DNA from: a virus
Lineage: Duplodnaviria; Caudoviricetes
Direction: 5' to 3' (one strand)
Virus record (IMG/VR): IMGVR_UViG_3300031949_000858
Coordinates: 1-54,617 of that record
Length of the DNA: 54,617 bases
The first letter of the stretch is position 1. Each line of letters begins with the position of its first letter. Below, piece after piece: positions 3,628 through 54,305 of this stretch. Under the pieces are notes generated by a model, which ran no database searches, was not told where the DNA came from, and saw nothing but the letters and a program-made list of their open reading frames with translations. The position numbers and the translations under genes are program-made.

Positions 3628-3806
3628 CGCGCCACCTGCCGCACAGCCCGCACCCCAAGCACCCCCAGGGCCAGCACGACCAGCGCCCAGCCGTGGACGT
3701 GCTCCAGCGCGCGCTCCCCCATGCCCTGCCCCGTGCAGAGGGGACAGCGATTCTCGAGGGGGTAGTAATTCTCTCTATTCCTATCTCGCCACTGTTTCGC
3801 TCTCAT
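3624..3806 (-). CDS. Small hypothetical protein
   Basis: 60 aa, CPLC, hydrophobic C-terminus; start uncertain. Confidence 0.45.
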   Translation of the reverse strand: MRAKQWRDRNRENYYPLENRCPLCTGQGMGERALEHVHGWALVVLALGVLGVRAVRQVAR

Positions 3807-3817
3807 CTGTCTCGCTC

Positions 3818-4087
3818 CTATCTGTTTCGGGGCCTTCGCCAGCTTGGCCGTTTCGGCTGCTTCGGCCGGCCTTTGGGGTTCCTGCTCTTCCGTAGGCTAA
3901 TCATCGCTAAGCGGCTCGCTGATAGTCCTGGCCAGCGGCGGGCCATCTTCAACCACCGATAACGTTTCGGCGGCGGCGCTAGCTGGTCTAGTCTAGCTAA
4001 GGCCGCTTCTAAGGCGCTCTTTAGCGCGACGGCTTCTTTCGCTAGCGCTGCTGTTCGCTCTAGCTGTTGCCAGGCTTCGTAGTCCAA
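3818..4087 (-). CDS. Basic hypothetical protein
   Basis: 89 aa, helical N-terminus, K/R-rich tail. Confidence 0.5.
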   Translation of the reverse strand: MDYEAWQQLERTAALAKEAVALKSALEAALARLDQLAPPPKRYRWLKMARRWPGLSASRLAMISLRKSRNPKGRPKQPKRPSWRRPRNR

Positions 4088-4326
4088 GCGGCTACTACTA
4101 CTTTCTCTGCTAGCACTCTCAGCTCGGGCCAGCTACGACCGGCTAACAAGCTCGGATACTCACCGACCAGCTCAACAATCCGATCCCTCACTCGGTCTTG
4201 CTCGCTTGGCGGAACTGTCGCTTTGATCCAGTCATCTAGATGGGCCACCGCTGTTGCCTTCACCAGCGCTGCTACTCCATCACACCAGTAGTCTAGTTGG
4301 TCTTTCGGTTGCTTTATGATCTCCAT
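4060..4326 (-). CDS. Hypothetical protein
   Basis: 88 aa with upstream GGAG. Confidence 0.6.
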   Translation of the reverse strand: MEIIKQPKDQLDYWCDGVAALVKATAVAHLDDWIKATVPPSEQDRVRDRIVELVGEYPSLLAGRSWPELRVLAEKVVVAAWTTKPGNS

Positions 4327-4344
4327 CCCTATATCTCCTCGCGC

Positions 4345-4563
4345 CTAGCTGGCGCTCTCCTGGATGAACCGTGCGCGCCTACCGACACCTTCGACTCGCC
4401 CACGGCGCACCGAGAACCACGCCCCCGCGTCGGAATCCCAGCACTGGATACGGGCGAATTCCCGGTACATGTCCATTTCGTCGATGTGACGCTGTGCGGC
4501 GACCTTGGTAGGGTAGTCGTTACTGACCTGCCCGTTTCCATAGTTCACTCGGTACATGTGCAT
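4345..4563 (-). CDS. Hypothetical early protein
   Basis: 72 aa, GGGGAG upstream. Confidence 0.6.
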   Translation of the reverse strand: MHMYRVNYGNGQVSNDYPTKVAAQRHIDEMDMYREFARIQCWDSDAGAWFSVRRGRVEGVGRRARFIQESAS

Positions 4564-4701
4564 CTCCCCAACAGTCAGTCCGGTTGATCTGTTCCTGGTC
4601 TAGCCAATAGAACAGGCAGGTTTGCTGTCCCTACCTGCTCGATCGCTCTACCGGGTGAGCAGCTTTACTGCGGGCGCGCTCGGTGCTCGTGGCGGGGCGC
4701 A

Positions 4702-5145
4702 CTAGCGGGCGGCCTCGTCCAGCTCCGTCGCCTCGGGGTCCGAGACGCCCAGATGCCTGCGGTCCAGGATCTTCACCTCGCACTCTGCGGGGAGCTGCGC
4801 CGCGTACTTACTCTTGGCCCAGCGCACCAGCTCCTCGCGACTGGAGCCGAGATACGTCATCCAGCCGAGATCCTGGCTGTCCAGGCAAATGTGAAACTGA
4901 CCCCCGCCCACGGCCTTGATCTTCAGCGTCGGCGGCTCGACCTCGGGCTCACGCGCCGCGAACAGGACGTTGCCGTTGCGGTACGCGTCCGGATCACCGG
5001 ACGCGATATCGTCCAGGGATTCGAGCGGGGAGGTCCAGACCGCGGCGCTCTCCAGCCCCGCCTCGCGCAGCGCCTCCGCTGCCACCTCGCACTGCTCCGC
5101 CGTGTCCACCGGGTAGGTCTCGTCTGCGATTACGATGTAGGTCAT
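4702..5145 (-). CDS. Hypothetical early protein
   Basis: 147 aa, acidic, GAGGGAG upstream. Confidence 0.7.
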   Translation of the reverse strand: MTYIVIADETYPVDTAEQCEVAAEALREAGLESAAVWTSPLESLDDIASGDPDAYRNGNVLFAAREPEVEPPTLKIKAVGGGQFHICLDSQDLGWMTYLGSSREELVRWAKSKYAAQLPAECEVKILDRRHLGVSDPEATELDEAAR

Positions 5146-5234
5146 CTCTGCGCTCCCTCGCGGCTTGATTGCCGCTCTGATCGCTCCATGGGGCCCGCCA
5201 CCTGGCAGCGGGCCCGAGCAACGATCAGTCCGTT

Positions 5235-6296
5235 TCAGTTTCGGCTAAGCAGCCGAACGGCTCGCCGCTTCGTCGCGGCGCCGCTGCCAAACTGGGTCGA
5301 GTCGAGTCGATGGTCTGCTTGCTGGGTAGCGGTCTTTCCGCGGTAAGCGCGGATTCTTGCCCTTTGATGATCAATGTACTCGGTCACCGCGTTCAGGGCG
5401 TCGTAACGATCCTGCCCGAAGTTCCCCGTTCCCCTCTCAAACAGCCCCATAAGCAGGCTGCCTTGGTCTTCCCAGCTGCTGAAGGTTCGGGGGGCGCTCT
5501 CTTTGGCTTTTCTAATTTTCGCAGTTGCCTCTTCGAGCGTTTCGGTCTCGGTTAGCAGCATTGCGAAGAACCCTCTTGCTGCGTTTCGCTCCATCGGCGT
5601 GTCTGCGAGCCCCTGGAACAGCTCGGTTCCTTCGGAAAGCTCCTTATACGCCACCTCTAGCGCTTTCACCGCGTCGAACAGTTTCCCATCTTGCGACTTG
5701 GTGTGCCGAATCCAACACGCGTTCCCGCTGTCGGCTGCCATGTTGATGGTGTTCTGGCAGACTGCTCTAATCAGGCTTCTTGCTACTACCGTATTCTGGC
5801 TGGCGTCGAACGTAGTAGAGAGCAGCAGGTTCGGCAGCGAAACATCGGTTCCGCCATCGAATGCCGCTGCGGCCTTTCCACCCCGAACGATTCTGCTTTC
5901 TCCGCCGAGCCTGATATTGAGCCAAGCTTTCCGCTTATCGAACAGAGTCCCGCCGACATCTCTATAAGCGGCGCTATCGGCTGCGAGTACTGCATCCGAC
6001 ATATCAAGTAGCCGACTCGGCTGTACCAGCTCATAGACTCGGCCGACGGCTACGCCGCGGAGCGGCTCGGCTTCGCCGACTACATGGATTCCGTACACGT
6101 CCTTTACTGGCTTACCCTGGTACTCGAGCTGGACTTTCTCCAAGCTAAAGTCCAGGCCGGCCAGCCGAGTGAACTCTGCTCTGCTGGTGTCCCGCGCTAT
6201 TTCGCTGAGGCGCTGGCTGGTTTGGCTGCTATGCCAAATATCCATCTTACTACCCACATGCACCATCTGATCTCGACCCATAAGTCCATGTCCCAT
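5235..6296 (-). CDS. DUF932-family (phage/plasmid LGT) protein
   Basis: VGRVYELVQP, GGTLFDKRKAW, LLLSTTFDAS, IRAVCQNT, IRHT, ALNAVTEYIDH, FGSGAATK motifs. Confidence 0.85.
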   Translation of the reverse strand: MGHGLMGRDQMVHVGSKMDIWHSSQTSQRLSEIARDTSRAEFTRLAGLDFSLEKVQLEYQGKPVKDVYGIHVVGEAEPLRGVAVGRVYELVQPSRLLDMSDAVLAADSAAYRDVGGTLFDKRKAWLNIRLGGESRIVRGGKAAAAFDGGTDVSLPNLLLSTTFDASQNTVVARSLIRAVCQNTINMAADSGNACWIRHTKSQDGKLFDAVKALEVAYKELSEGTELFQGLADTPMERNAARGFFAMLLTETETLEEATAKIRKAKESAPRTFSSWEDQGSLLMGLFERGTGNFGQDRYDALNAVTEYIDHQRARIRAYRGKTATQQADHRLDSTQFGSGAATKRRAVRLLSRN

Positions 6297-6770
6297 GGTG
6301 TTATCTCGTTATGCCATTGATTGTCTGGGCAGCTAGCTATTTGCTGGCTGTCTAGTTTGCAGCTAATGGCCCGCTGCGAAACTGGGGTGGACTATTGGGT
6401 AGCGATTGCACCCCCCATCCCTAGCGCTGTCCGCTAATAGGGATGGAGGGTGCTCTCTAGTCTGTGCGGTGCCCCTTCGCTAGCCCAGCTCTCTGGTCCG
6501 CAGGGGCGCTGCACTCCTTCTGTTTCAGGCCGTTCTAGGGCGCTACACCTAGCTCTCCGGCCTGGAGCGGGTGCCTCCCCCGCCCTATCCCGCGCCGCGG
6601 GGTATCTCTAGCTCTCGCTAGCTGCCCGCTGCCCGTGGAGCGCTTGGGTGAGGCGCGCTCCGGCCTTTCGAGGGTTCGTGGCTCCTCGCTGCGCCCAGGG
6701 CCTGCGTGACCGATTCGGCTACCGCGATCCCTGGCTCGATCCAGCTGAGTGGCTGGCGTCGACAAGGGCA

Positions 6771-6799
6771 ACTCTACTGGTAAGTAGGTTATCTCGCAA
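6771..6799 (-). promoter_or_regulatory. Putative sigma70 promoter for the early arm
   Basis: Minus strand TTGCGA (6799-6794), 17 nt spacer, TAGAGT (6776-6771). Confidence 0.55.
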
Positions 6800-7198
6800 G
6801 CCCCCCTTGATTCTATTGAGCTTTCTGGCGCGGCTAGCCCGCTAACCCGCCCGCCGAGCCGGCTAAGTGGTTGATTTCATTGGGTTGACACTAATCTAGC
6901 TAAAGCTAGCTCTAACTAGCTAAACCGCTCTCTAGCGCTCTCTGGCTGGCTGTCTCTAGCGCCCCTTGTGTGTTTCGGCGGCTGGCTGGCTGGGTGGCTG
7001 TCTGGCGCCGTTTCTCTGTTGCAAGGGGAGGACAATCAATGTGATAGTATACTAACACTTGGTATCAAGCTAGCTAAGATAAGCCAGCCTCGTTAACCAC
7101 TCTAGCCTCGGTTAGCCTGGCTAGTCAATCGCATCGCCCTCCTAACCAGGACAGCCCCTCTAGACTCGCTCCCTTTTGTTAGGTACTAACAGTATTTG

Positions 7199-39848: not shown

Positions 39849-40143
39849 TAGAGGGAACGGCGCCAAGCGCCCGCGTAATGAATAGCGCTGCTGTATAGAC
39901 GATCACGTCGAGTAGCTCGTTTTGGCCCTGCTCGAATGAGACAACGGCGTGTTCGTCTAGTTTCTTCTGGATTTGGAACAATAACGCTCCGGGGCCGTGC
40001 TTTAGCGCGCCCTGGATAATCCATTGGCTCAAAAACCCTTCCCCTGTATGGCCGTGGCGCTGCTGGCCTTTTCCTTTCGCTGCCCGCTCGAAAGCAGCGT
40101 CTAGAGCCTCTGCTAACCGTTCATACCCTTCAACTCGCTCCAT
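39595..40143 (-). CDS. All-alpha (MazG/NTP-pyrophosphohydrolase-like) phage protein
   Basis: YERL..ALDAAF..AA.GKG..RH, Q..KK..E, ELLDVIVYTAA; C-terminal ~84 codons overlap the opposite-strand gene. Confidence 0.55.
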   Translation of the reverse strand: MERVEGYERLAEALDAAFERAAKGKGQQRHGHTGEGFLSQWIIQGALKHGPGALLFQIQKKLDEHAVVSFEQGQNELLDVIVYTAALFITRALGAVPSTKTTPAAPAAPELQGALGLHLLGTEALIAGALPQSRAQSLWPLQGFDLAPWPTQPAPKAPQSAAPLSAPLECRRKPTTAEPLEG

Positions 40144-41113
40144 TCGCCGCCTCCTTTAGCTGGTCAAATGCTCTCTCGGCCTGCTTTACATAGCTTGTAA
40201 TCGTCACTGGGGTCCGCTTTAGCGCCCGGGCAATGGCGCGTTTCGTTACCCCTGCATCTAGTAGGGTCAAGACAACTCGGTGGCGTTCGGGAAGCTGCTC
40301 GAAAAGGGGCTCTGCTTCGCTCGGCGGCCTTGGGAGCGCTTTCGGCGGCCCCTGTGCAAACCACTGCTGGAAGCGGGCGAGCAGGCGGTTTTTTGCGTGC
40401 GTAATCGCCGTCGGCGTTAGAGCGAGGCGCTCTGCGATTTCGGTCAACGGCAGCTCATCCCAGTAGAGCCAGTGAATGATCGCTCGGTCGCGGGGGCTGA
40501 GCTGGTTCAGCAACGGCGCCACTCGCTCCCGGAGAGCCTCTTGAGCTTCAAGCTGCTCAAAGGCGCAGGGTGGCTGCTCTGGTACGTAGAAAAGCCACGG
40601 AGCCCTCAGCGCCTGCCACTGTTCAAGGGTCTCTTCAGATACGTTGAGGGCCGCTGCGAGCGAGGGGCGGCTTGGCAGCTGGCTACTGTTCGGCTGGCTA
40701 CTGTTCCGCTCGGCCCACTCCAGCCGCTGGAGCCGGTCGATCTGATACCGGGGTAAGCAGTCGTCGCCGCGGATGAATTCGTAGATCTCTCCTCTGATCC
40801 GGCGGGTTGCCCAGTTGAATAGCTTCTCAGCCTTCCCAGGGTCAAACGAACGAAGGGCGAGCGAGAGCCCGAGGAGAGCTGGGCCGGCGAGGTCGTCTTG
40901 ACTATACAGGGGAAACGTTCGGCTGACTCGCCAGGCCCATTTATGAGCCAGGCGAACCAGCCGGTCTAGCCGCTCTGGCGAGATAGGGAAAGCGCCGCCG
41001 GGGGGCTGATCCGGCGTACGTACCAAATCAAGACGGCGCTTTCCCACAACAGGTCTCGCTGGCTGGCTAAGGCTGGCTCGTTCGGCCGGGGTAGCCAAGG
41101 GCGCTATCCGCAA
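40130..41113 (-). CDS. Sigma-70 family sigma factor (FliA/WhiG-like) with extra C-terminal HTH
   Basis: DDL....LLGL..A.RSFDP, WATRRIRGEI...IR..D..PR, LSPRDR.II...Y..ELPLTEIA..L; second LPERHRVV...KRAIARAL; start uncertain. Confidence 0.85.
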   Translation of the reverse strand: MRIAPLATPAERASLSQPARPVVGKRRLDLVRTPDQPPGGAFPISPERLDRLVRLAHKWAWRVSRTFPLYSQDDLAGPALLGLSLALRSFDPGKAEKLFNWATRRIRGEIYEFIRGDDCLPRYQIDRLQRLEWAERNSSQPNSSQLPSRPSLAAALNVSEETLEQWQALRAPWLFYVPEQPPCAFEQLEAQEALRERVAPLLNQLSPRDRAIIHWLYWDELPLTEIAERLALTPTAITHAKNRLLARFQQWFAQGPPKALPRPPSEAEPLFEQLPERHRVVLTLLDAGVTKRAIARALKRTPVTITSYVKQAERAFDQLKEAANGAS

Positions 41114-41276: not shown

Positions 41277-42851
41277 TTAGCTCCCTTCTATTCTACGCTG
41301 CCAGAACTCTTTTCGGATCGAGCCGGTCGCGCCGTAGTGCTTTTCGCCCCTTTGGACCGCTCCCGCTTTCGCTAGTAGCTGGAGGATTCGCTGTAGCTGC
41401 CCTACCGAGCCAACGGTGTGGAGCAGCTTGCTGCAGAGGAATGCTTCAGACACCCATTTTGGCGCAGAGGGTATCGCGGCGAGAACTGCATGTGTGGCTT
41501 CTCCCTCTTTCGACTCATGGATCTGCTGGAAGAGCATAGTAAACTTTTCACGCTCTTTGGACAAAACCCTATTCGCCGTTTCGAGATCGTCGAGCCGGAT
41601 CTGAAAGCGCCCATTCGAGACCGCTAAGAGCATCGCGACTCGGAGCATCTGATCCTTTACTCGGTTGTGCCAGGAGCGAAACTCGGGTTCGATTTCCTTC
41701 TGCTCATCCCAGTAAGCGTAATACTGCTCCCACCAGGGGTCGGTTTCGGGGTGCCGGGTGACTTCCATCTCAGGTAGGCGGGACAGCACCTTGAGCCAGT
41801 TAGCTAGATGATCTCTCTCCACCGGGTCCAACGGTGGCATCGTCGGGTAGACACGGGCGCTTTCCGTTCGGTAGCACCAGACAAACCGGCCCTGGAGCCC
41901 CCCTGTGTAAAAAGCTGGCGGCATGAGCTTTCGCAGGTTTTCGGGAGCCGATGCGAAAAGTGCCGTTACCGCAACGCCGGTGAGAACCCGGAGCCCCCGG
42001 CCGATGGTAGGGTTGATGAAGGTGTCTTTTCCGTTTGAGAGATCCAATAACAGCCCACACCAGCTCGTACAGTCGTACATATCCTTTCCGATAAAGGCCA
42101 TTAGTTCGTCTTTTATAATGATACTGGTGGAGTCTTTTCGCTTCTTGTAGGTAACGCGGGCGCGCTTTTTTGTTGGCTCATCTACCCCATCCTCGGTAGC
42201 TGTTGGTTCGATGGGTTCTGCTGTTACATCTACGACATAGCTCTGCTGGCAGCGCTCTAGAAAAGCAGCCGTGGAAAGCCGATCCGGGATGATGTTGATG
42301 GTATCGTCGAAGGTGTCGTTTAGCTCTCGCTCGAGAAAGTAGTTTACTCGTTTCAACAATGGCTCGGTACAGCTCTGTAGGCAGAGTGACTTCCCGCCGC
42401 CGCTTGGCCCTACTAGACAAGCATAAAACGCCGGCCAGATCCGGTAGGTTCCCGTGTCGAAATAGTAGTTGCGCCGACTACACGCGGCGATTAGAGAGAG
42501 CGCCGACCAAAAATGCCACGCCAGCGGAACCTCCATATGCTCAGCCCACGCTAGATACCGGCCAATCCAACCACTCGTTGGGTAGACCGCCTCTTCGGGG
42601 AGGCGTGGGGCTGGCTCGAGCCTTTTTACCTTCAAGGCGCGGCGCCAGTCTTGTGGGTCTTCTAGATTACAGATCGCCTCCATCCGGGCTAACGGGATCG
42701 CTAGTAGCTCCGAGGCTTCTTCCAGCATCGCCTCGGCGGCGGGATTCTGGGTCATTCTCGCGTCGATCAGCTGCCGGACCAGCTCGGCTTGCTGGTTGAT
42801 ATCCGATAACGTAAGGGGGCTTGAGAGTAACTCGATAAAAGCTTCCGTCAC
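41277..42851 (-). CDS. DUF3987/YfjI-like P-loop ATPase (primase-helicase associated)
   Basis: E.P..WHFWSALS, LVGPSGGGKS Walker A, IIKDEL Walker B, GGLQGRF, winged-helix-like tail. Confidence 0.8.
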   Translation of the reverse strand: MTEAFIELLSSPLTLSDINQQAELVRQLIDARMTQNPAAEAMLEEASELLAIPLARMEAICNLEDPQDWRRALKVKRLEPAPRLPEEAVYPTSGWIGRYLAWAEHMEVPLAWHFWSALSLIAACSRRNYYFDTGTYRIWPAFYACLVGPSGGGKSLCLQSCTEPLLKRVNYFLERELNDTFDDTINIIPDRLSTAAFLERCQQSYVVDVTAEPIEPTATEDGVDEPTKKRARVTYKKRKDSTSIIIKDELMAFIGKDMYDCTSWCGLLLDLSNGKDTFINPTIGRGLRVLTGVAVTALFASAPENLRKLMPPAFYTGGLQGRFVWCYRTESARVYPTMPPLDPVERDHLANWLKVLSRLPEMEVTRHPETDPWWEQYYAYWDEQKEIEPEFRSWHNRVKDQMLRVAMLLAVSNGRFQIRLDDLETANRVLSKEREKFTMLFQQIHESKEGEATHAVLAAIPSAPKWVSEAFLCSKLLHTVGSVGQLQRILQLLAKAGAVQRGEKHYGATGSIRKEFWQRRIEGS

Positions 42852-44491
42852 CGAAGCTCTCCCCAGTCGTGCCCGGTATGGATGTCGACTGGAAAGCGGA
42901 CGCCGTTTAGCTCAGCAATCGGCCGCTCCATTACTTCGCGTAGCTGCTGCTCCCAAAGGGGCGCCTCTCGCTCGAGTACTTCCAGCTTTATATCGTCGTG
43001 CATCTGCTGGACGACTGGGGCGCCCATTTGGTCTAACAGAGTAATGGCTTCGTTGGCGATTTCACTTGCCCCCGACTGCATTGGGCAGTTCCAAATACTG
43101 TTTCGGCTCTCTCGAGCTGGCGCACAGAACTGTCGGGTAAAGCCCCAGCGGGATTGAAAGCGCCGACCGTTTGCGATCACACTTTCAAACAGTTGATCCC
43201 TCCAGCGCATTGTGGTAGCTCGCGTACTGCTCCACCGTTGCATGACTAGTTTATTCTGTGCCGGCGTGAGTTGGAGAAACTGGGGAACCTTATCTGCACA
43301 GCGGGGGCAAGGGCAAAAGAGCTGCTGGACGCCCGCGCCTTTTTCACTCGCGCCGTAGCCAATTTCGAAACGCTTCTTTTTCGCGTAGTCGCGATGCTTT
43401 TTCCGGAGTGTTGGGTCCATGGCAGCCCAGTGAGTAGGTGAAATGCCAAAGATATCCTGCGCTGTCTCAGCGTGAACGTCTCGTGTCTTGTCGGAGAATG
43501 CTTCGATGTCTTTCTTTTCGCCGGCTAGATAAGCCATGATCCGGGCTTCGCACTGGCTGTAGTCGCCCCGTACAAAAACGTAGCCCGGCCGAGCGACAAT
43601 CAGATGTCGGATCTCATCTGGCCATTGATGGAGCGGTGGGTCTGAATAAGCCCAGCGAAGGGTTTCTGCTGTATAAAGGCGGATTCGCGGGTAAACGCGG
43701 TTGTCTGGACCTGTTTCAAAGTTCAGATAACGGGAGCGAATAGTCGAAAGCCGAGAACGGTGGAAGAGGTCTTCGAGAATCCATTTATTCGGCTCGTCGA
43801 GCTTTCTTAGATGTGTGTAGATATGCATAAGGGCGCTTTGAGCAGTCGAACGGGCTGGCCGCTTGTCGGTTTTCGGCGCTGCCTTGAACCCGATTGTGTC
43901 GAACAGCCACTTTGCTAGCTGCCCCGTTTCCCCTCGGCTGTTCAGGAACGTCCGCCGCGCCTCTTCGGCCTCTTTGACCCTTGCCCGGAACCCAATCTCT
44001 CTACGCTTTCCCCGTGTACCCACCACTTCGCTCTCCGGGAACGGATTCTTCTTTGCCGCATTTTTCGCCCGGGCCACTTCCAAATCGAGTGCAGCGTCGT
44101 TCCGGCGCCACTCCTCCGCAGCTTCCACCAAGCTGCCCAGATGAACCGCGCGAGCAAGTAGCCCCCCATCAAGTTCCTCTAGGTCTTTGTTGAGTTTCTC
44201 TTTGTAGGCGGCCAAACGTCCACGGTCCAGGTGCCCGAACCCTCGCCGCTGGATATTGAGAGCCGCGGGGACGACACGAGAAAACCAGCGATTGTAGTAA
44301 GCTCGATTACCAGCTCGATCGAGCAGTGGTTGGAGTCCTCGGTACGCGAGAGCAGTAGCTAAGCAGTCGTAGGCGTTATAGACACCTATCGCTTCCGCTG
44401 AGTACTGCAGCCACTTATGGCTGGTAGCGGTGTTCTCTAACTGAATACTCGGAGCTACCAGGTCACTAGGATCAATCTCTAGCACGTTCAA
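42848..44491 (-). CDS. DNA polymerase family A, C-terminal part (ExoIII motif plus polymerase domain)
   Basis: YNAYD; motif A DYSQCEAR; DVH; motif B R..AK...F...YG; N.PMQSGASEI; motif C MHDD. Confidence 0.9.
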   Translation of the reverse strand: MNVLEIDPSDLVAPSIQLENTATSHKWLQYSAEAIGVYNAYDCLATALAYRGLQPLLDRAGNRAYYNRWFSRVVPAALNIQRRGFGHLDRGRLAAYKEKLNKDLEELDGGLLARAVHLGSLVEAAEEWRRNDAALDLEVARAKNAAKKNPFPESEVVGTRGKRREIGFRARVKEAEEARRTFLNSRGETGQLAKWLFDTIGFKAAPKTDKRPARSTAQSALMHIYTHLRKLDEPNKWILEDLFHRSRLSTIRSRYLNFETGPDNRVYPRIRLYTAETLRWAYSDPPLHQWPDEIRHLIVARPGYVFVRGDYSQCEARIMAYLAGEKKDIEAFSDKTRDVHAETAQDIFGISPTHWAAMDPTLRKKHRDYAKKKRFEIGYGASEKGAGVQQLFCPCPRCADKVPQFLQLTPAQNKLVMQRWSSTRATTMRWRDQLFESVIANGRRFQSRWGFTRQFCAPARESRNSIWNCPMQSGASEIANEAITLLDQMGAPVVQQMHDDIKLEVLEREAPLWEQQLREVMERPIAELNGVRFPVDIHTGHDWGELR

Positions 44492-45258
44492 GAACGGGTT
44501 CCGCTGCTAGAACGGGTTCCGCTCCCTAGCTGCCCGATACTGGCGGCTCGCTGCTCTGCCGAGAACCCGACTCGTTTCGCATCTCCCACGCTCGCGTAGC
44601 CCTTCGTAACGGCAGACAGCGCAGTAAACGCTTCGTTGCTCTTCCGGCCACTGTAGGTAAGCGAGTGAGCTGGGAGAATCCCTAATGCGCCGCCGCCCCT
44701 TATCGCGTCGATTCCGGCCCCGAGGAACACGAAAAGCCAGCCCGCCGCTTGCTTTTCGGCAATCCGTCTCTGTAGCGCGCTCTGTGTATACCGCTCGGAG
44801 CCGCCTTCGTGGCCGTCGGTTTGAACCACGATAATCACTCGAGCGCGGGTACCCGGTCGGTCGTTCCGCTCTTCGGCTGTTTCGATCGCTCGCCCAACCG
44901 CGTCGTAGAGCGGCGTTCCTCCATCGGGGACGTAGCTCTGACGGCTGAGTAGAGGAACACTGTCGATTGGTTTGTCCGAGTAGCGGAACGCTAGCCGGGG
45001 GGTTCCGCGCTCGTCACTGTCGAATGGCATCAGCGAAAGGCGAGCGCCGGGAACTTCGGCCCGCAGCGCCTTTATATACCCGTTGAAGCCGTCGATTGTG
45101 GCTTCTCGGTGGGTTGCCATTGAGCCGCTACTGTCCAGAACTACCGTTACGTCTGTACAGCGGGCAAGCTGTTCTCTCTGCTGCTCTACCCGCTCGAGCT
45201 GGTCCAGGGCTGCCAGGGCAGGTAGGCTACTCTTCCCGTTCAAGGGCTTCTCGTTCAA
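44488..45258 (-). CDS. vWA domain protein
   Basis: VLDSSGSM MIDAS, GGTPLYDA, QTDG, GWLFVFLGA. Confidence 0.9.
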   Translation of the reverse strand: MNEKPLNGKSSLPALAALDQLERVEQQREQLARCTDVTVVLDSSGSMATHREATIDGFNGYIKALRAEVPGARLSLMPFDSDERGTPRLAFRYSDKPIDSVPLLSRQSYVPDGGTPLYDAVGRAIETAEERNDRPGTRARVIIVVQTDGHEGGSERYTQSALQRRIAEKQAAGWLFVFLGAGIDAIRGGGALGILPAHSLTYSGRKSNEAFTALSAVTKGYASVGDAKRVGFSAEQRAASIGQLGSGTRSSSGTRS

Positions 45259-45270
45259 GGGTGACTCCTT

Positions 45271-45762
45271 TTAGTTTCCATTGTTATTCCCTCTCTCGCC
45301 TCTCTCGCCTCTCTCGGTGCCGCTCGCCTTTTCGACATCTTCTCTCAGCCTTAGTAGCTCACGCGTTACCTCGGTAGGGTCTAAGCCCTTTTTGTTTACG
45401 TCGGGGTGAAACTGTTTCGCTAGCTGCAACAGGCGGCGCCGGAGTACAGCTACTGGAGTATCCAGCCCTGGCTCCAGCCCTCCAGCTCTCGCCCGTAGCG
45501 CCTCCACTTCGCGGCGGAGCGAATCTCTCTCTTCTTCCAACGACGCCATTAGCGAGAGCTGTTGCTCTTGGTTTGGTTGGATAAAGTTTCGCGTATACCC
45601 ACACTGCGGATAGTTTGAGCAACCCACAAACTTACTCGTTCCGTCCCTTCGCTGCTTTACCAGTAGCGTTCCAGTTCCGCAGAGGGCGCACTTTTTCGAG
45701 ACGCTCCACCAAGCGAGCTGTGGCGGCATTTCATCGCTCTCCGTGTCGCTTTCGTCGATCAA
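45271..45762 (-). CDS. Topoisomerase-type Zn ribbon, coiled coil and J-like (HPD) domain
   Basis: CALC...FVGCSNYPQCGYTR; LAKQFHPD. Confidence 0.75.
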   Translation of the reverse strand: MIDESDTESDEMPPQLAWWSVSKKCALCGTGTLLVKQRRDGTSKFVGCSNYPQCGYTRNFIQPNQEQQLSLMASLEEERDSLRREVEALRARAGGLEPGLDTPVAVLRRRLLQLAKQFHPDVNKKGLDPTEVTRELLRLREDVEKASGTERGERGERGNNNGN

Positions 45763-46052
45763 GGGGTGGCTGGGGCCGGAGCGGTAGGAGCAGGGGCTCC
45801 GGGGGCTCCAGGGGCCGTTCCCGCCCCGCCCGGCCCCGGCCCATGCACATGCGGCGGCCCCCCATCATGCTGGTGGGTGCCGGTGTAGCGGCAGCTAAAG
45901 TTTGGCCCTTTTGTACTCCACACACATTCGTATTCGCCTACTGTCCCCGAGAGCAAAACCGGGGTCTGCTGGTGGCGGGTCCAGTAGCCGATGAAAAAGC
46001 TGGTTACCGCTAACAAGACACTACAAACGATGGCAACACTTTTCTGCACCAA
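45759..46052 (-). CDS. Small membrane-anchored protein
   Basis: N-terminal TM, Cys pair, P/A tail; GGGAG SD. Confidence 0.6.
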   Translation of the reverse strand: MVQKSVAIVCSVLLAVTSFFIGYWTRHQQTPVLLSGTVGEYECVWSTKGPNFSCRYTGTHQHDGGPPHVHGPGPGGAGTAPGAPGAPAPTAPAPATP

Positions 46053-46068
46053 GTGACTCTCCCTTCTT

Positions 46069-47184
46069 CTACTTCCAATGTCCGACTGACTCTTCCAGCC
46101 GACTCTTCCAACCAGCTATTCCACTTGTCACGCAGGCAACATGCTCTAGGCGCTTTCTTGCTTCTGGCATTGCCAAATGTGCCATAAAGATCGTATCGGC
46201 GTAGTAGTTAGTTATCTCAAACCCGACCTCTTCTAACATCTCGATATCATGGAAACCGTTATGCATAATCAGCGGGGTTCCGCTTGCTAGAAAGTCGAAT
46301 AGCCACCCGACCACCGCATCAAACTCATCTACCGCATGAAGCTTCGCTAACCCTGCTTGCCCTGTTCCAGCTAAACAGTCGTCCCTTACCCCGCCACAGT
46401 CGGGACAATGAACCCATGGAGCGCCCCCTTTTTGCCTAAAATGAACCCCAATATGCCGGAGCGACTCGACCGCCGTTAGCCCAACCAGCCGAACTACCCA
46501 CCCTGCGTTTTCTACGTCTACTGCTACTGGCTCCCCCGGCGCGAGGGCAGCCTCCCACTGCTCCATTTCAGCTAGCGTTGGAAAAATATTCGCCCCCGGC
46601 GGCGGCCGATCAAAGTCATACACGGGTGGCTGCCAGCCCTCTAGCAGTCGCCTTATTCGGATCAGGCTCTGTACCTGCGCCCCCTCCATCCCCCAGGCAC
46701 CCTGAATAATAAACGACGGATGAAGCAAGCCGACTAGCCAAGCGCCGCTACTATGCCGCAGTATCTGGCCGGCGGTTCGCTCACTCGCGCTCGGCCCGTA
46801 GAACTGCTTCATTGCTGGAACGCCAATCGGGACAATTACTTGATGGCCGGCTACTTCGCCGCTCCAATGAGCCTCTTTACAGTAGGTGATCTCTTTTTGT
46901 TTCGGAGGGCGGTTCCCTTTCGGCGGGACAACCTGTTTCGGCATCCAGCAGAGAACACAGTTCCCTACACGGATCTGCCCTCTGTCCAGCCCTGCCAACT
47001 TCAACCACTTGTCGAAAAGCTGCCCGCTCGGCCCAATAAACGGGCTTCCAAGGGCCGCCTCTACTTCGCCGGGGCCCTGACCAACAACCAGTACTCTCGC
47101 GCTCGCTGGCCCCTCAAACGGAACAAACGAGTAGCTCGTCGAAAATCCCGGACACGCCGTGCAACTTCCCGGCCTACCGGCCAT
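46069..47184 (-). CDS. Uracil-DNA glycosylase (family 4) fused to the N-terminal part of a 3'-5' exonuclease
   Basis: CTACP, GQGPG..E...PFIGPSG, NCVLC, HPS; then AVDVE (ExoI), HNGFHD (ExoII), DT..MAH, L. Confidence 0.85.
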   Translation of the reverse strand: MAGRPGSCTACPGFSTSYSFVPFEGPASARVLVVGQGPGEVEAALGSPFIGPSGQLFDKWLKLAGLDRGQIRVGNCVLCWMPKQVVPPKGNRPPKQKEITYCKEAHWSGEVAGHQVIVPIGVPAMKQFYGPSASERTAGQILRHSSGAWLVGLLHPSFIIQGAWGMEGAQVQSLIRIRRLLEGWQPPVYDFDRPPPGANIFPTLAEMEQWEAALAPGEPVAVDVENAGWVVRLVGLTAVESLRHIGVHFRQKGGAPWVHCPDCGGVRDDCLAGTGQAGLAKLHAVDEFDAVVGWLFDFLASGTPLIMHNGFHDIEMLEEVGFEITNYYADTIFMAHLAMPEARKRLEHVACVTSGIAGWKSRLEESVGHWK

Positions 47185-47437
47185 AGGTCACCGCGACTGG
47201 TTCGACCGGCTGCTCTGGCTCTTCCACCGGCGTAATCCCCTCGCTATCCATCGCTTCTACGTCAATTCCATGCCCTAGATACGTTTCGATGTCGAGTCGG
47301 GCAAACTCATAATGTTCGCCCGGTTCACGTAAAAGCGGCTGGAACGGTAATCGCCCCAGCCGCCTACGCCTGTGGAACTTCGAGTGGCTCCAGCCCAGTA
47401 GCTGGAGAACCTCAAACAGTGTCAATGTCTGCCGCAT
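47174..47437 (-). CDS. Excisionase-like HTH DNA-binding protein
   Basis: LTL.EV..LLGWS.S.F.R....G.LP...F.R.DIE.YL. Confidence 0.7.
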   Translation of the reverse strand: MRQTLTLFEVLQLLGWSHSKFHRRRRLGRLPFQPLLREPGEHYEFARLDIETYLGHGIDVEAMDSEGITPVEEPEQPVEPVAVTYGR

Positions 47438-49020: not shown

Positions 49021-49929
49021 CTACTTCTCGCCCAACCAGCTCTTCTCTACCAGTCCCCAAAGTCCCCCCTGATCATTACTCGGTGGATACACAAACGGGG
49101 GCAGCTTCTTATACCGGCCGAGCCCTCCAACGCGGTCGGCTACGACACCATGAAACTTGGTATGAGGAACCGAACGAACTATCGCTTTCCGGCTCCCCGC
49201 AACGATCTTCCCGGCCTTGTCACCCGGTACTTCGTCCGAGTCGAGAGAGCAGAATAGGTTCACGTCATTCTGTTGGAAGATCAACCTATTATAATCGCCT
49301 GTGATATCGGCTTTGATCCCGGTAATTTCTCCCTTCTCATTCACAGTCACCTTCTCGTGAATGGTGACTACATGCATATATTGCTCTTTGCCCTTTTCAA
49401 ATTCCCTCGCATGTTTCATCAACCGATAGTATTCATTCAAGAACACTAACTTCGCCTGATACCTCGCTCGGCCGTCGTCGGAGCCCCGAGCCGTCGTAAA
49501 GGTCATCGTGTCGAGATGCTCTTCGATTAGACTTGCTTGGAATGTTGAGCTATCGGTTACAATGGTTCTAACTGTATATTCCGCGAATCCTGGCAAGGTC
49601 CGAACTAGCGCGGTTAGCTCTTTCGCCGCAGCGGCTTTCGCAAGCTGCCGCATCTGCTCGAGCGAGCGAACCTGAATAAAAGGGAACCGCTGCTTTTGCC
49701 TCGTTATACTTGCTGTAGTCGGATCAAAGTTGAAGAACACCGGGTCGGGGAAGCTCGCTGCATGGGTGGTCTTCCCACTCAGCCCCGCGCCCCAGAGACC
49801 CAGCGCTAGCTCCAGGCGGGCTTCGTCGCCGTGGCTATCAGCGAAACCTAGCGCCGCCGCCCTGGCAGCGAGTGAGACTGCTGCCGGCGCCGCTGTTGCA
49901 AGGGCCTTTGGCGTTTGAAGGGTGGTCAT
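49021..49929 (-). CDS. AAA_24 / Sak4-like ATPase (recombinase)
   Basis: LWGAGLSGKTT.AASFP.P, TIVTDS, VTIHE. Confidence 0.8.
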   Translation of the reverse strand: MTTLQTPKALATAAPAAVSLAARAAALGFADSHGDEARLELALGLWGAGLSGKTTHAASFPDPVFFNFDPTTASITRQKQRFPFIQVRSLEQMRQLAKAAAAKELTALVRTLPGFAEYTVRTIVTDSSTFQASLIEEHLDTMTFTTARGSDDGRARYQAKLVFLNEYYRLMKHAREFEKGKEQYMHVVTIHEKVTVNEKGEITGIKADITGDYNRLIFQQNDVNLFCSLDSDEVPGDKAGKIVAGSRKAIVRSVPHTKFHGVVADRVGGLGRYKKLPPFVYPPSNDQGGLWGLVEKSWLGEK

Positions 49930-50231
49930 TTGGAAGGTTCCGTTTGGCTGTTCATCGCTGCCACCCTATCGGCGAAGTCTGCCATGTCCCGTAGCTGTAT
50001 CGAAGCGCAGTAGTGGTATAGTTTAGGGCTGTCTAAAGGAAACTCTCCATCATGCCAAACGTACACATCGAAACAGCTACCAGGGCCCCCTAGAGGGATA
50101 AGGATTCCGTGTCCTGTATAGCCTCCCCACTGAGGGTGGAAGAACGCAAATCCAAAAAGTCCACCAAAACCCATGTCTATTTTAGCATTCTCCTCGCATT
50201 GCTCGCCGGTTGGCTTAGTCACCGTTATCAC
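49926..50231 (-). CDS. Hypothetical protein
   Basis: HPQWGGY, CFDVYVWHDGEFP. Confidence 0.65.
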   Translation of the reverse strand: MITVTKPTGEQCEENAKIDMGFGGLFGFAFFHPQWGGYTGHGILIPLGGPGSCFDVYVWHDGEFPLDSPKLYHYCASIQLRDMADFADRVAAMNSQTEPSK

Positions 50232-51355
50232 AACACCCCCTCCAGCTGCTCTTGCGCTAGCGTTCGGTCTGCTTCGGCAGCGAACCTCGGCGTTGTTGAG
50301 AGCAAAAGCGCCTTCGCATTCTGCCGGTTCCTACACAGGTCATACATCCCACACCGAAACCCCTGCCCAGCACAAGTCATTCTCTCAGGGTGGCCGTCGA
50401 AAACTAGCTCGATCGCATCTAACGGGTCGACCCCTAGCTTCACATGCTCTTTATACTCTTCTACTAAACTGTTCATCCGCTTCAACCGGCGTACCATATC
50501 GATCTTGAACTTTAGTAGGTCTCTTTCTGAGCGGTCTACTGGCTCCCAAATTCGGCATAGCTCGCCGGTTCGGCCTCGTTCAGAGAGGAGTGTCTTTTCC
50601 CCTTTCGAACGTTTCTGTATCAGATTAATCACCGGATAAACATGCCCCAAAAAGCCAAGACACTCCTTCACCGCCAACGCTTCGCACGACACCTGCCCGG
50701 AGAGCCCGTAGTCGGCTAACGTCGCGGCTCGGAACGAAACATCACAGGTCTTATGCTCAGGGATCACGATGGTTCCCGGGTTCTTACTGGTAGGTAGATC
50801 ATCCACTGCCCACCCCACCGTGTCAAGTCGGGTCGTCATGTAGTAATCCTGGTAGCCGAGGGGGACGGCGAAAAACCGCTCTACCATCGGCCCTTCGTTG
50901 TCGTGGGCGACGACAAAGTAATTCGTTTCGGGGTCGGGCCCACTCGCGCCGGTCTCGGCACTGTAACGGCGCCAAAGCTGCTCGGCCTCAGCGCTCCACT
51001 TCGCCCAGTCTTCGTCGTTCTCTACGGCTGCCTTGTCCCGTTTCCCCCCTTCCCTCAGCGCTTCCATCCCCGCTTCGGCACTATAACGGCGGGTGACTGG
51101 AGAACCGTCCCAATCCGCCATACTAGTAGGGTCACTCAAGTACCACGCCTTCATGGCATCGTGGATTCGCTGCCCGACAAACAACGGATGCGCCATCCGA
51201 GCGCCGATACCAAAACCCCCCTTTGGATGGGGCAGTAGCTCGCCGAGAGCCCAACGCTTTTCACATGCATGAAATGCTGAGAGGCTGCTCCAGCCGATTT
51301 CGGTTCCGCCGCTATCGCCGACTCGTTTATTTAGAATGCTTTTTAGGGTTTGCAT
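50228..51355 (-). CDS. PD-(D/E)xK exonuclease, Cas4/RecB-like
   Basis: SS...F..CEK.W, G..IH, RLD, EHKT, Q...., C-terminal C..C..C cluster. Confidence 0.8.
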   Translation of the reverse strand: MQTLKSILNKRVGDSGGTEIGWSSLSAFHACEKRWALGELLPHPKGGFGIGARMAHPLFVGQRIHDAMKAWYLSDPTSMADWDGSPVTRRYSAEAGMEALREGGKRDKAAVENDEDWAKWSAEAEQLWRRYSAETGASGPDPETNYFVVAHDNEGPMVERFFAVPLGYQDYYMTTRLDTVGWAVDDLPTSKNPGTIVIPEHKTCDVSFRAATLADYGLSGQVSCEALAVKECLGFLGHVYPVINLIQKRSKGEKTLLSERGRTGELCRIWEPVDRSERDLLKFKIDMVRRLKRMNSLVEEYKEHVKLGVDPLDAIELVFDGHPERMTCAGQGFRCGMYDLCRNRQNAKALLLSTTPRFAAEADRTLAQEQLEGVL

Positions 51356-51794: not shown

Positions 51795-52234
51795 ACGGGG
51801 CACTCCCAGAGCGTCTTTTGGCCGGTCGGGTGCTTGTCTACCCGCGGACGCCAGCGACGGTTCCAGCTACCGCCCTTCGTGTTGTACAGCTCTCGCCAGC
51901 CTGCGGCGCGCAGCGACGTGCCGCGCTCCGTTGCCAGCGTGTAGGTGATGAGCCGGCGGTAGCCCATCGCCCGCGTCGCGCGACACGCGGCGGCGTAGAG
52001 CTTCGACGCCACGTGTGGCGTTCCGTCGGTGCAGCAGCGCGTCACCTCGGCCGTCCAGCCGTCCTGCAGGCGGCCCGCGGTCGGGCGCCCGATCACCGCG
52101 ACCCCGACGATGCGCGCGCCGTCGTTGCACGCGATGCCGAAGAGCCAGCCGCGCGGGGGCTCATGGTGGCGGTGATGCTCGGAGATCCAGGCGAACGCCT
52201 CGTCCTGGAAGATCGGCTGTAGTTCGAGGGTCAC
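51791..52234 (-). CDS. XF1762-family / Mom-like GNAT-fold protein (putative DNA modification)
   Basis: HHRHH..P, VGVAVIGRP.A, EVTRCC.DGT...SKLY.A, GYRRLITYTL..E.G.SL.AAGW. Confidence 0.8.
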   Translation of the reverse strand: MTLELQPIFQDEAFAWISEHHRHHEPPRGWLFGIACNDGARIVGVAVIGRPTAGRLQDGWTAEVTRCCTDGTPHVASKLYAAACRATRAMGYRRLITYTLATERGTSLRAAGWRELYNTKGGSWNRRWRPRVDKHPTGQKTLWECPV

Positions 52235-52440
52235 GGGGTCGGCTCCGCGCCGATGTCCTCGGCCTCCATCGCGCGGGCGGCGCGACTCGGAAGATCCTCG
52301 GCCGCGAGCCCCAGCACCTGCAGCGCGAGTGCGATGTCCTCTCGGCAAGTCGAGCGGTCGATCGACTCGATCACGACGTCGACATAGCCGCCACCCGACA
52401 GCGGGAAGTGCAGGTGAAACCGCGGGCGTAGCGTGCTCAC
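52231..52440 (-). CDS. Hypothetical protein
   Basis: 69 aa, coupled. Confidence 0.55.
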   Translation of the reverse strand: MSTLRPRFHLHFPLSGGGYVDVVIESIDRSTCREDIALALQVLGLAAEDLPSRAARAMEAEDIGAEPTP

Positions 52441-52967
52441 GTCGGCTCCGCCTCAGCGGGCGCGGAGGCGAGGGTGCGGAGCTTCCGCGCGATCTCATGC
52501 GCAGCAGCCTCGGCTGCGATATGCCACGGGCCATAGCTGACGCCCACGTCACGAGCGATCGCCTCTCCTTCAACCAGCGCGGCTATGCGAACCAGCGCGG
52601 AGACGTCGCGCACCAGGACGCGGGCCCGCGTCTCCATACGCCTGCGCCACTCGATGCCGGTCAGCGTGCCCTGGATGCTCTCCTCCATCTCCCGCACGGC
52701 GTTGAAGATCAGCACCTCGATCTCGGGCACTGTGTCTGACCCCTCCACCGCGTCCGGCTTCGCTTGTCCGCGCGCCGCGAGCAGCGCCGCTACCTGCGGC
52801 ACCTCTGCAAGCGTGCGGTGATCGCTGCTGATCGGCATGTCGCAGCGATAGACCTTGTGGCCCCGCTGCCAGTCGTTCTCGACCAGCGCGATTCGCCGCA
52901 CGTGCCACCGCTCGCCATCACAGACGATGGCGATGCGCTCCACCGCGGGCGGCTGCGCGTCCGTCAC
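52437..52967 (-). CDS. Hypothetical protein (MTDAQPPAVER N-terminus)
   Basis: GTG at 52967 after GGAGG, overlapping upstream stop. Confidence 0.6.
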   Translation of the reverse strand: MTDAQPPAVERIAIVCDGERWHVRRIALVENDWQRGHKVYRCDMPISSDHRTLAEVPQVAALLAARGQAKPDAVEGSDTVPEIEVLIFNAVREMEESIQGTLTGIEWRRRMETRARVLVRDVSALVRIAALVEGEAIARDVGVSYGPWHIAAEAAAHEIARKLRTLASAPAEAEPT

Positions 52968-53122
52968 CACCGCACCACCTCCTCTGCGGGCCACTGCAGC
53001 CAGCGCAGCTCCGTCGGGCAGCGGACGCACGTCCACACGCGCCAGACGCCTGCCTCTGTGCGCTCGTAAGTCCATCGTCCCCAGCGGTGCCACCAGCGGC
53101 AGGGCTGCGCGTCCGTCGTCAT
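52964..53122 (-). CDS. Trp-rich small protein (52 aa, not in ORF track)
   Basis: Own translation MTTDAQPCRWWHRWGRWTYERTEAGVWRVWTCVRCPTELRWLQWPAEEVVRW; 4-nt overlaps at both ends. Confidence 0.6.
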   Translation of the reverse strand: MTTDAQPCRWWHRWGRWTYERTEAGVWRVWTCVRCPTELRWLQWPAEEVVRW

Positions 53123-53400
53123 GCGCACACCCCGCACTTCCGGCAGTGCGCAACTCCAGTCAGTTGCTCGAAATCATGGGCGCACAGGGGCATCTCGAAC
53201 CTCTGTATCCCCAGCAGCCTCCTTACCTCGGATACCTCATTGGTCAGTCGCCCGAGTACGCGGACGAGTTCGGCGCCGACCTCGTAAATTGCAATGCTCG
53301 GTATGTCCACAGCACCGCGCCTGCAGGCGTCGGATGCCTCCGCGGCCTGGTTGCGCAGATACTTCGCCGCCTTCTCCGCCTCGCTCTCTGTCTCGCTCAC
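53119..53400 (-). CDS. Hypothetical protein with C-terminal Zn motif
   Basis: CAHDF...CRKCG. Confidence 0.6.
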   Translation of the reverse strand: MSETESEAEKAAKYLRNQAAEASDACRRGAVDIPSIAIYEVGAELVRVLGRLTNEVSEVRRLLGIQRFEMPLCAHDFEQLTGVAHCRKCGVCA

Positions 53401-53828
53401 GACTTGCCCTCCCGTGCGGCGCGGGCGGCAATCGCGGCTTTCCGGAGGTCCCGCTCCTCCCTCGCTGTATCCCGCTCCCCCCTCGCCGCCTCGAGCTGGG
53501 CGCGGAGGGCGTCGCGGTCGATCAGGGCTGCATCCAGCTTGGCGCTGTACTCATTCGCGGTCACCGACCAAAGATCGCCGGACACCACCGCCGCATCCCG
53601 CTCGCGCTGCAGGGCGAGCACCGCGCTCGCAGCGCGGTCCCGCTCGGCCACAATCATCCGCCGCAGGGCATCCCGCTGCCCCCGCACCGTGGCGAGCTGC
53701 TCGGCTGCTTCGCAGAGTGCGAGGTCGTCTTCGAGGTCGATCGTCTTATCCAACCCAAGCTCCAGCCGATGGTCGGTGCGTCTGCGCACCCTCGCCAAAA
53801 TCCCCCGCAGCTCCTCGTCTGTCGCCAT
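53397..53828 (-). CDS. Coiled-coil hypothetical protein
   Basis: ERD repeats; GGAGG SD. Confidence 0.65.
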   Translation of the reverse strand: MATDEELRGILARVRRRTDHRLELGLDKTIDLEDDLALCEAAEQLATVRGQRDALRRMIVAERDRAASAVLALQRERDAAVVSGDLWSVTANEYSAKLDAALIDRDALRAQLEAARGERDTAREERDLRKAAIAARAAREGKS

Positions 53829-54305
53829 CTACTTGTCCTCCTTCTTCGCCTGGCGCGCGGTGTCGATGGCTGCGCGCAGCGGGTACGGTGTATCTACTGT
53901 GGTTTCACGATTGCCACGTAACGCCTCGGCTAACTGCGCGGGGATGCACTGGCCGTCCTTCTCTAGCCAATCCAGCCGCGCCTGATCCTCCCGGGCCACC
54001 TTGAACTCTGCAATCAGCGCGAGCGCCACGGCCGGGGAGAACGCGGCGATGTAGGCGGCGTCGGCCGTGTTGCCGTCGCGCGGCGCCATGAGGTGGCCCT
54101 CGGGCGCGAACGGGCCAGGCGGGAAATAGGCGCCTTCGGCGTGGTACGTGTTCGCGATGCCTCGACCGATTGATGGATTCTCGAAGCCCACCGCGAGCAC
54201 GTGCTGGTACTTGACGCCGTTCTCCTCGCGCGCCTCCCAAGACCACGGCCCCGGCGTCGCAGCTCGCGCGAGCTTCTCCAGCTCTGTCATCTCTTCCGCC
54301 GTCAT
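53829..54305 (-). CDS. Ead/Ea22-like protein
   Basis: LA.AATPGPW...DAAYIAAFSPAVALALIAE; RLDWLE...LRAAID. Confidence 0.75.
   Translation of the reverse strand: MTAEEMTELEKLARAATPGPWSWEAREENGVKYQHVLAVGFENPSIGRGIANTYHAEGAYFPPGPFAPEGHLMAPRDGNTADAAYIAAFSPAVALALIAEFKVAREDQARLDWLEKDGQCIPAQLAEALRGNRETTVDTPYPLRAAIDTARQAKKEDK

Follow-up and report, generated by a model that had tools for sequence, protein, structure and literature searches.

Family A DNA polymerases are known from textbooks as enzymes of one chain, with an exonuclease domain that is treated as a structural unit. What, then, becomes of the proofreading site when its motifs are distributed over two genes with other genes lodged between them? 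The question is raised by the polymerase locus of a virus record (IMG/VR record IMGVR_UViG_3300031949_000858, positions 1 to 54,617; Duplodnaviria, Caudoviricetes), whose full stretch of 54,617 nucleotides (nt) is called the window here. One gene of this locus encodes a uracil-DNA glycosylase (UDG) followed by the first two exonuclease motifs, ExoI and ExoII (the N-half); the other encodes the third motif, ExoIII, followed by the polymerase domain (the C-half). We consider it probable that this soil phage possesses an obligate two-subunit polymerase of the UDG-PolA class that underwent fission in the distant past, forms a composite DEDD exonuclease site and tolerates cargo at the junction between its subunits.

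One polymerase in two genes

The halves and the genes in the gap between them make up five open reading frames (ORFs) in the ORF list of the window, all on the minus strand. The distance from the N-half stop to the C-half start is 1577 bp, and the three unrelated genes that the initial annotation placed there are confirmed as ORFs of 97, 163 and 256 aa.

46069..47184, minus strand: N-half gene, 371 aa; family-4 UDG and ExoI/ExoII part
46510..46518, minus strand: ExoI motif D223-V-E225 (DVE), N-half residues 223-225
46246..46263, minus strand: ExoII motif H308-N-G-F-H-D313 (HNGFHD), N-half residues 308-313
45759..46052, minus strand: gap gene 1, 97 aa; no Pfam or PHROG family
45271..45762, minus strand: gap gene 2, 163 aa; Zn_ribbon_Top1 (PF01396, E 3.6e-11)
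44488..45258, minus strand: gap gene 3, 256 aa; vWA (phrog_7371, E 5.6e-38)
42848..44491, minus strand: C-half gene, 547 aa from TTG (545 aa from GTG); ExoIII and family A polymerase
44366..44380, minus strand: ExoIII motif Y38-N-A-Y-D42 (YNAYD); Y36 to D40 in the 545-aa numbering of alignment A2

Consecutive parts of the PHROG polymerase profile phrog_17 are matched by the two products (479-781 by the N-half, 807-1233 by the C-half), as are neighbouring segments of the one-chain polymerase from Bacillus phage CP-51 (76680-77732 and 77784-79217); the identity of the window halves to named phages is 21-25%. Fused relatives from metagenomes carry PF03167, PF01612 and PF00476. The exonuclease family PF01612, which scores above its cut-off in four of the five fused relatives tested, spans the equivalent of the break: in P0077 it covers residues 187-350, whereas the window pieces run up to 328 and resume at 339. 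The DEDD motif set (DxE, NxxxD and YxxxD) is complete but distributed over two chains, with a spacing of 96 residues from ExoII to ExoIII when both chains are counted together.

The single-chain UDG-PolAs (N4-like cluster 17; SPO1, SP-10 and SP-15; CP-51) share the domain order UDG, 3'-5' exonuclease, polymerase, and are described as a class (Czernecki et al. 2023, PMC10201439) in which the UDG holds a fixed position between the exonuclease and polymerase domains. This account agrees with the premise from which the initial annotation started, namely that SPO1-type polymerases carry UDG, exonuclease and polymerase in one chain. These enzymes, however, are single polypeptides of ~800-900 aa, whereas the window has two genes cut between ExoII and ExoIII. 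Judged from its sequence, the window polymerase keeps the UDG-Exo-Pol order with a stop after residue 371, and hence is not a member of the single-chain UDG-PolAs.

The N-half had been read as a family-4 UDG with DVE and HNGFHD and then a stop, and its Pfam match, its relatives in the PDB and the positions of its motifs bear this out. The UDG domain (residues 24-162; PF03167, E 3.8e-20) has family-4 UDGs as its best solved relatives (Thermus UDG 1ui0, E 2.8e-17). Its motif reads GQGPGE where Thermus UDG has GEGPGE, HPS is present, and Q36 is invariant in the alignment of N-half relatives (A1); likewise invariant in A1 are C8, C11, C79 and C102, which we take to be Fe-S ligands. Residues ~186-371 correspond to the N-terminal two thirds of a DEDD 3'-5' exonuclease fold, an assignment made on account of the motifs, phrog_17 and the fused relatives. 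The chain stops 58 residues past D313, in a tail that reads ...GHWK.

The C-half, in agreement with the short leader, YNAYD and polymerase domain assigned to it earlier, opens in its 547-aa form with a 37-residue leader containing a conserved H..WL; next come the ExoIII helix and the rest of the exonuclease helices, then the family A thumb, palm and fingers. A GTG start two codons past the TTG would give the 545-aa form that is on record as P0010. DNA_pol_A (PF00476) covers residues 189-545 (E 1.1e-33; 117.2 bits against a cut-off of 34.3), and the profile of the C-half relatives (alignment A2) matches Klentaq at E 2.4e-53. In all 26 C-half sequences of A2 the polymerase residues D308, E313, K369, Y377, G378, H496 and D497 are invariant; they belong to motifs A, B and C, which serve catalysis and dNTP binding.

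An insertion in the polymerase domain between motifs B and C holds a CPCPRC motif (43298-43315; C-half residues ~393-398). All 12 closest relatives share its C391, C393 and C396 (545-aa numbering), which are nearly invariant across the 26, and the segment is gapped in the Klentaq alignment; it may be a metal-binding element without a counterpart in Klentaq.

A conserved break point

Conservation of the split point in relatives had been put forward initially as a check. A word-indexed search with the N-half recovered eight full relatives, the query included, and one UDG-only protein. The eight (347-410 aa, 39-100% identical, at least 99% query coverage) all end at one aligned position, seven with HWK and one with HNK, and H369 and K371 are invariant. 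The C-half search yielded 36 proteins; 30 of them, the query included, are 422-578 aa long and have PF00476 as their sole family, and seven cellular Pol I-type proteins were found at 26-28% identity. Alignment A2 comprises 26 of the 30 C-half proteins, three at 67-69% coverage and one other being left out. Every one of these 26 starts 20-38 residues ahead of an invariant Y..N...D; H23, W25 and L26, upstream of ExoIII, are nearly invariant among them, and the ExoIII Tyr and Asp are kept throughout (26/26).

A census of break points took in 158 proteins, nine from the N-half search and 149 from the best 150 of the 14,353 matches (E<=0.001) returned by an exhaustive phmmer search of 1.84 billion representatives. 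The ExoI-ExoII part (ExoN) is present in 95 of the 158. Within this set, 73 proteins end between -1 and +11 residues of the projected N-half end (28 with a UDG, 45 without), 19 are fused and run on for 421-550 residues, and three have intermediate tails of 53-110 residues. D223 and E225 are kept in all 73 split and all 19 fused relatives; D313 is kept in 72 of the 73 split proteins (the other has E) and N309 in 70. A vestigial remnant would hardly be expected to retain these carboxylates.

A FastTree phylogeny built from 95 rows and 167 columns of the ExoN region unites 68 split rows in one group (support 100), and two changes between split and fused are enough to explain the tree. An IQ-TREE run (quick, LG+G4) on 50 rows, made up of 26 chosen from the 68 of the main group, all 19 fused proteins and five other split ones, with the three intermediates left out, gives the main split group an SH-aLRT of 99. 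A split trio, P0128, P0082 and P0134, sits among the fused proteins (SH-aLRT 93 for the enclosing set) and could represent a second fission at the same site; the starred branches also fit a single origin. By this comparison of sequences the split is a clade-wide and old trait. We speak of fission because the fused form is the wider state among UDG-PolAs.

A variable gap between conserved halves

The same arrangement holds at the level of genomes. In nine of nine lineages (the window, L004/5, L006, L007, L009, L011, L012, L013 and L014) an N-half or ExoN gene, a gap and a C-half gene lie in this order on one strand, and the gap is as follows.

Window: gap 1577 bp; three genes
L005: gap 847 bp; three ORFs, one an HNH_3 homing endonuclease (E 1e-11); L004 has identical gap ORFs
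L006: gap about 370 bp; SLOG/YAcAr protein
L007: gap 451 bp; one ORF of no assigned function
Caulobacter phage Kuura (L009): gap 612 bp; two small ORFs; N-half annotated 'hypothetical protein'
L013: gap 516 bp; one ORF of no assigned function
L014: gap 1988 bp; phrog_4652 protein and PD-(D/E)XK exonuclease
L011: gap 6 bp; no gene
L012: stop and start abut; no gene

Among 13 gap proteins compared, no pair from different lineages is similar at E<=0.01. In the closest relative, L002, whose N-half is 76% identical, the gene after the N-half is homologous to an L005 gap ORF, not to the 97-aa gene. The exonuclease in the L014 gap has homologues in the window, L007 and L011, where they are encoded upstream of the polymerase. 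Since Kuura has been cultured and gives turbid plaques (PMC9959647), the arrangement is compatible with a viable phage.

A homing endonuclease stands at the gap in one of the seven lineages with gap genes (L005/L004). L005 has two HNH_3 genes with N-terminal helix-turn-helix (HTH) domains (2975-3538 and 5174-5623). One occupies the polymerase gap, and the other separates the polymerase from the primase/helicase; the copy in the gap resembles LUZ24 gp40 and gp30 (E 7e-18 and 3e-6).

In three lineages the UDG is a further separate gene, which makes these three-piece polymerases; in L012 it lies 2 kb from the ExoN part, with several small ORFs between.

L007: UDG and ExoN genes, 4153-4605 and 4914-5597
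L011: UDG and ExoN genes, 5347-5880 and 6096-6737
L012: UDG and ExoN genes, 3779-4324 and 6345-6980

One candidate for the same split was rejected. MW202554 (L001), which stems from a spring virome and encodes a distantly related UDG-PolA (25% identity), has two adjacent 'DNA polymerase' genes (1727-2986 and 3138-4364); its first part contains YNCLD, so that the cut falls after ExoIII. Fission has therefore taken place at more than one position in the UDG-PolA class.

A predicted two-chain exonuclease

Structure prediction of the two products together, another check suggested at the outset, gave an interface. With both family alignments the complex reached an ipSAE of 0.82 (0.83, 0.82 and 0.82 in the separate runs), against 0.00 for the best of three controls, with a contact agreement among runs of at least 83% and a partner predicted local distance difference test (pLDDT) score of at least 86. 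The predicted interface comprises C-half residues 23-51 (H..WL and the YNAYD helix), 54-80, 267-274 and 451-459, and N-half residues 221-228 (ExoI), 306-309 (ExoII) and 329-366; in the model the ExoIII helix is therefore placed against ExoI and ExoII. What the model shows is that the two halves lend themselves to modelling as one Klenow-like whole, which is short of binding.

We posit that a UDG-Exo-Pol gene of family A was fissioned long ago between the ExoII and ExoIII motifs, and that the N-half (UDG, ExoI and ExoII) and the C-half (leader, ExoIII helix and polymerase) would since have been translated separately. The leader and ExoIII helices of the C-half would dock into the N-half and complete a DnaQ-like fold, yielding a stable heterodimer whose DEDD carboxylates are supplied by both chains and which could replicate and proofread like a one-chain UDG-PolA. 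As a boundary between subunits, the junction would tolerate insertion and hence collect cargo, with lineages holding differing genes there and, at least once, a homing endonuclease gene. In the window this cargo (membrane, Zn-ribbon and vWA proteins) would be expressed from the same co-directional block as the polymerase. A homing endonuclease might have made the original cut; only one of the seven lineages with gap genes has one.

A heterodimeric polymerase with a proofreading site assembled in trans was the central proposal of the initial annotation, and it is well supported by comparative evidence (the gene structure, colinearity with fused relatives, a conserved break point and conserved catalytic residues beside a variable gap) and by a controlled model. 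Physical association, the composite active site and proofreading activity we infer from these, and several points weigh against the heterodimer. The window's own N-half has no PF01612 match at E<=0.01; ExoN proteins of two relatives match this family weakly, below the cut-off (E 4.5e-4 and 3.3e-3), and these matches end at profile positions 129 and 107 of 173, an early end that fits a domain without its last helices. Folded alone by AlphaFold2 from eight sequences, the N-half has a mean pLDDT of 60.8, with 75-90 in the UDG and 30-65 in the exonuclease part. The low values in the latter are ambiguous and are given no weight, coming from another program and a shallow alignment; they would fit an incomplete domain. 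As for the complex, its score may mirror likeness to solved single-chain PolA structures and not this pair, and the benchmark for the ipSAE mark, which is reached by 58 of 80 solved complexes and two of 110 mismatched pairs, holds only roughly for family alignments that were self-made. The census proteins from phmmer come without genomic context, and short ExoN-only entries among them could be fragments or gene-calling artefacts. The ExoN tree is unrooted, and fission and fusion are not formally separable on it. Finally, a 51,220-base contig (Logan) made by another assembler, which covers 42800-47250 with 0 differences, probably stems from the window's own sample and is not independent.

Alternative explanations

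The two products might instead work independently, the C-half as an exonuclease-less polymerase stabilised by the helices it has kept, as proposed for CCPol, and the N-half as a free UDG or accessory protein with a vestigial stump. There is precedent in that CCPols lack about 110 exonuclease residues, keep three helices and bind another protein (PMC10201439). In the relatives L007, L011 and L012 the UDG is another separate gene, and the ExoN part folds with low confidence on its own. Against this, D223 and E225 are kept in 73/73 and D313 in 72/73 split relatives, and the ExoIII Tyr and Asp in 26/26, which is not what a vestigial stump would show; the halves are linked in unchanged order in 9/9 lineages; and the complex model prefers binding (0.82 against 0.00). 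We therefore regard independent products as unlikely. Alternatively, the halves could be joined later into one chain, whether through a large intron, with a split intein or as a result of ribosomal bypassing. Phage polymerase genes often contain introns and inteins, and introns were considered by the authors who described other split-PolA phages (PMC10580990). For the window, however, joining is very improbable. The initial annotation had seen no intein ends or intron signature, and profile searches concur: Pfam gives no intein or Hint family in either half, and Rfam has 0 families in the whole window at gathering score and 0 within 44300-46300 at E<=1. Only 96 residues lie between ExoII and ExoIII, and fused relatives have exonuclease sequence that aligns with both the N-half tail (58 aa past D313) and the C-half leader (37 aa), leaving no room for a split intein. 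Three ORFs, moreover, take up the gap; their ends overlap or abut, they have start signals of their own, and the stop and start positions of the halves are kept in relatives in which the gap ranges from ~0 to 2 kb with unrelated content.

A heterodimer is also preferable to the notion that the split is an artefact or a sign of decay, by misassembly or by an insertion that broke the gene in a defective phage. The window is indeed a single metagenome-derived virus record, but the same break recurs in a cultured phage and in metagenome contigs of independent origin, its position is shared by 73 of 95 relatives, the frames are intact and catalytic residues are kept on both halves; we hold this explanation to be extremely improbable. 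It is disfavoured chiefly because of the recurrence in relatives, which is stronger evidence than the same-sample contig, even though that contig crosses both junctions without a difference and so speaks to the misassembly that had been named initially as a danger. Sequence set X2 contributed two short identical pieces within the gap genes and bridged no junction.

The suggestion that the split allows tunable fidelity found no support. The genes form one tightly packed co-directional block with a TTGA overlap, no excess of terminators and no sign of separate regulation. A bolder form of the idea is that a large old phage clade builds its DEDD site from two polypeptides (three where the UDG is separate), that the level of the ExoI/ExoII subunit relative to the polymerase chain could set proofreading capacity and thereby a mutation rate open to regulation or evolution, and that homing endonucleases and cargo genes find a protected landing site at the junction; taken whole, this is quite unlikely.

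Relation to other split polymerases

Split phage PolAs are already known, and what is new in the window is the intra-domain, clade-wide and cargo-bearing form. Polymerase parts I and II lying 2 kb apart have long been annotated in LUZ24-like phages, as in the table given for UFV-P2 (PMC3890496). Like the window, these Pseudomonas phages carry the pieces of PolA on one strand at a distance of kilobases, separated by small unrelated genes; in LUZ24 (NC_010325), gp25 ('exonuclease subunit') and gp34 ('DNA polymerase part II') are separated by eight genes and ~2.3 kb, including an endonuclease. LUZ24 gp25 (169 aa), however, holds all three motifs (DLEGD, HNILDYD and YCLQD). The cut there follows a complete exonuclease domain, with no UDG, whereas the window has ExoIII on the polymerase chain.

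The T7-like cyanophages of the S-SBP1 type resemble the window in that PolA fission has given two interacting products, with a predicted complex that superposes on an uninterrupted relative (PMC10201439). According to the same source, the cut there separates the exonuclease from the polymerase domain, the genes overlap without cargo and the event is recent; the cut of the window lies inside the exonuclease fold and is old, widespread and cargo-bearing. CCPol of SCCmec resembles the C-half in keeping the last exonuclease helices as a docking surface for another protein (PMC10201439). For CCPol no complementary exonuclease fragment was found; it binds the unrelated MP protein and has no proofreading site. 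In the window, by contrast, an upstream gene encodes the remainder of the exonuclease, and the catalytic residues there are intact.

Phage genes in pieces associated with homing endonucleases include Aeh1 nrdA/mobE, T4 gene 39/60 with mobA, and phage 25 gene 43A/43B (PMC2988022). The 43A and 43B products co-purify and are active, split NrdA is active, and a homing endonuclease origin of the cut has been argued for Aeh1 nrdA/mobE and T4 gene 39/60 (PMC2988022). The window shares with these the division of an essential replication gene into two polypeptides, reassembly being known for the earlier cases; it differs in having no endonuclease among its gap genes, in being clade-wide and not recent, and in the course of the cut, through the DEDD fold of a PolA. 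Split PolAs are also mentioned for cyanophage metagenome-assembled genomes and OM43 phages, in passages that do not map the cut. Full-text literature searches, with subscription journals and supplements outside their reach, returned no description of a PolA cut between ExoII and ExoIII.

The earlier splits thus lie between domains, both in LUZ24-like phages and in the T7-like cyanophages reported as the first in 2023, whereas that of the window runs through the DEDD fold. This suggests that the last exonuclease helices are structurally part of the polymerase chain, as CCPol hints likewise, and the locus suggests itself as a natural system in which to study the trans-assembly of a two-metal-ion nuclease site. 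Annotation should change accordingly: the label 'hypothetical protein' is now given to N-halves such as Kuura_029, and C-halves have the look of polymerases lacking an exonuclease. The conserved junction between the subunits, for its part, acts as a cargo slot.

Gap genes and junctions of the window

The genes of the polymerase block are co-directional and follow head to tail, with ends that overlap or abut. Gap gene 1 has a hydrophobic N-terminal segment and a Pro/Gly/Ala-rich tail and is called a transmembrane or membrane protein; AAGAAGGGAGAG, of the GGGAG type, lies just 5' of its start, directly past the N-half stop. Gap gene 2 carries a topoisomerase-type C4 zinc ribbon at residues 23-60. 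After this ribbon, ...QFHPDVNKKG... recalls the HPD loop of J domains; Pfam gives no DnaJ match in this gene at E<=0.01. The TGA stop of the vWA gene overlaps the TTG start of the C-half as TTGA. An exact 15-nt direct repeat, AGAACGGGTTCCGCT, occurs with a spacing of 18 at 44491-44523, at the 3' end of the vWA gene just upstream of the C-half start, and encodes the repeated GTRS(S) tail of the vWA protein.

None of the three gap genes of the window matched an endonuclease family. A search around them for marks of a mobile cassette gave only short and weak flanking repeats and no shift in composition; their GC content, 0.56-0.63, is like that of neighbouring genes. Terminator-like sites between the halves number 13, against 11.3 in shuffled sequence, and promoter-like sites likewise do not exceed the shuffled expectation.

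Genomic surroundings

With a large terminase and structural genes on its plus strand, the window is a tailed-phage genome. Directly downstream of the C-half lies a primase/helicase gene that is kept as a neighbour in relatives.

41277..42851, minus strand: DUF3987 primase/helicase gene; overlaps the C-half stop

Downstream of the replication genes, 40130-41113 encodes a sigma-70 family protein of the phage with regions 2 and 4 and an additional C-terminal HTH. Upstream of the polymerase, a Sak4-like ATPase annealing single-stranded DNA (phrog_124, AAA_24; 49021-49929) forms a recombination pair with a PD-(D/E)XK exonuclease (phrog_1218; 50228-51355), whose homologue in L014 occupies the polymerase gap.

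Viral contigs held no close relatives when searched with either half as a single query or with alignment A1, and genome contigs scanned with A1 and a narrower C-half alignment (A3) gave no prophage copy in named genomes. The ends of the record are richer in GC than its middle (0.60-0.71 at 1-4000 and 0.67-0.70 at 52001-54000, against 0.54-0.64), and could be the host flanks of a prophage or a separate module.

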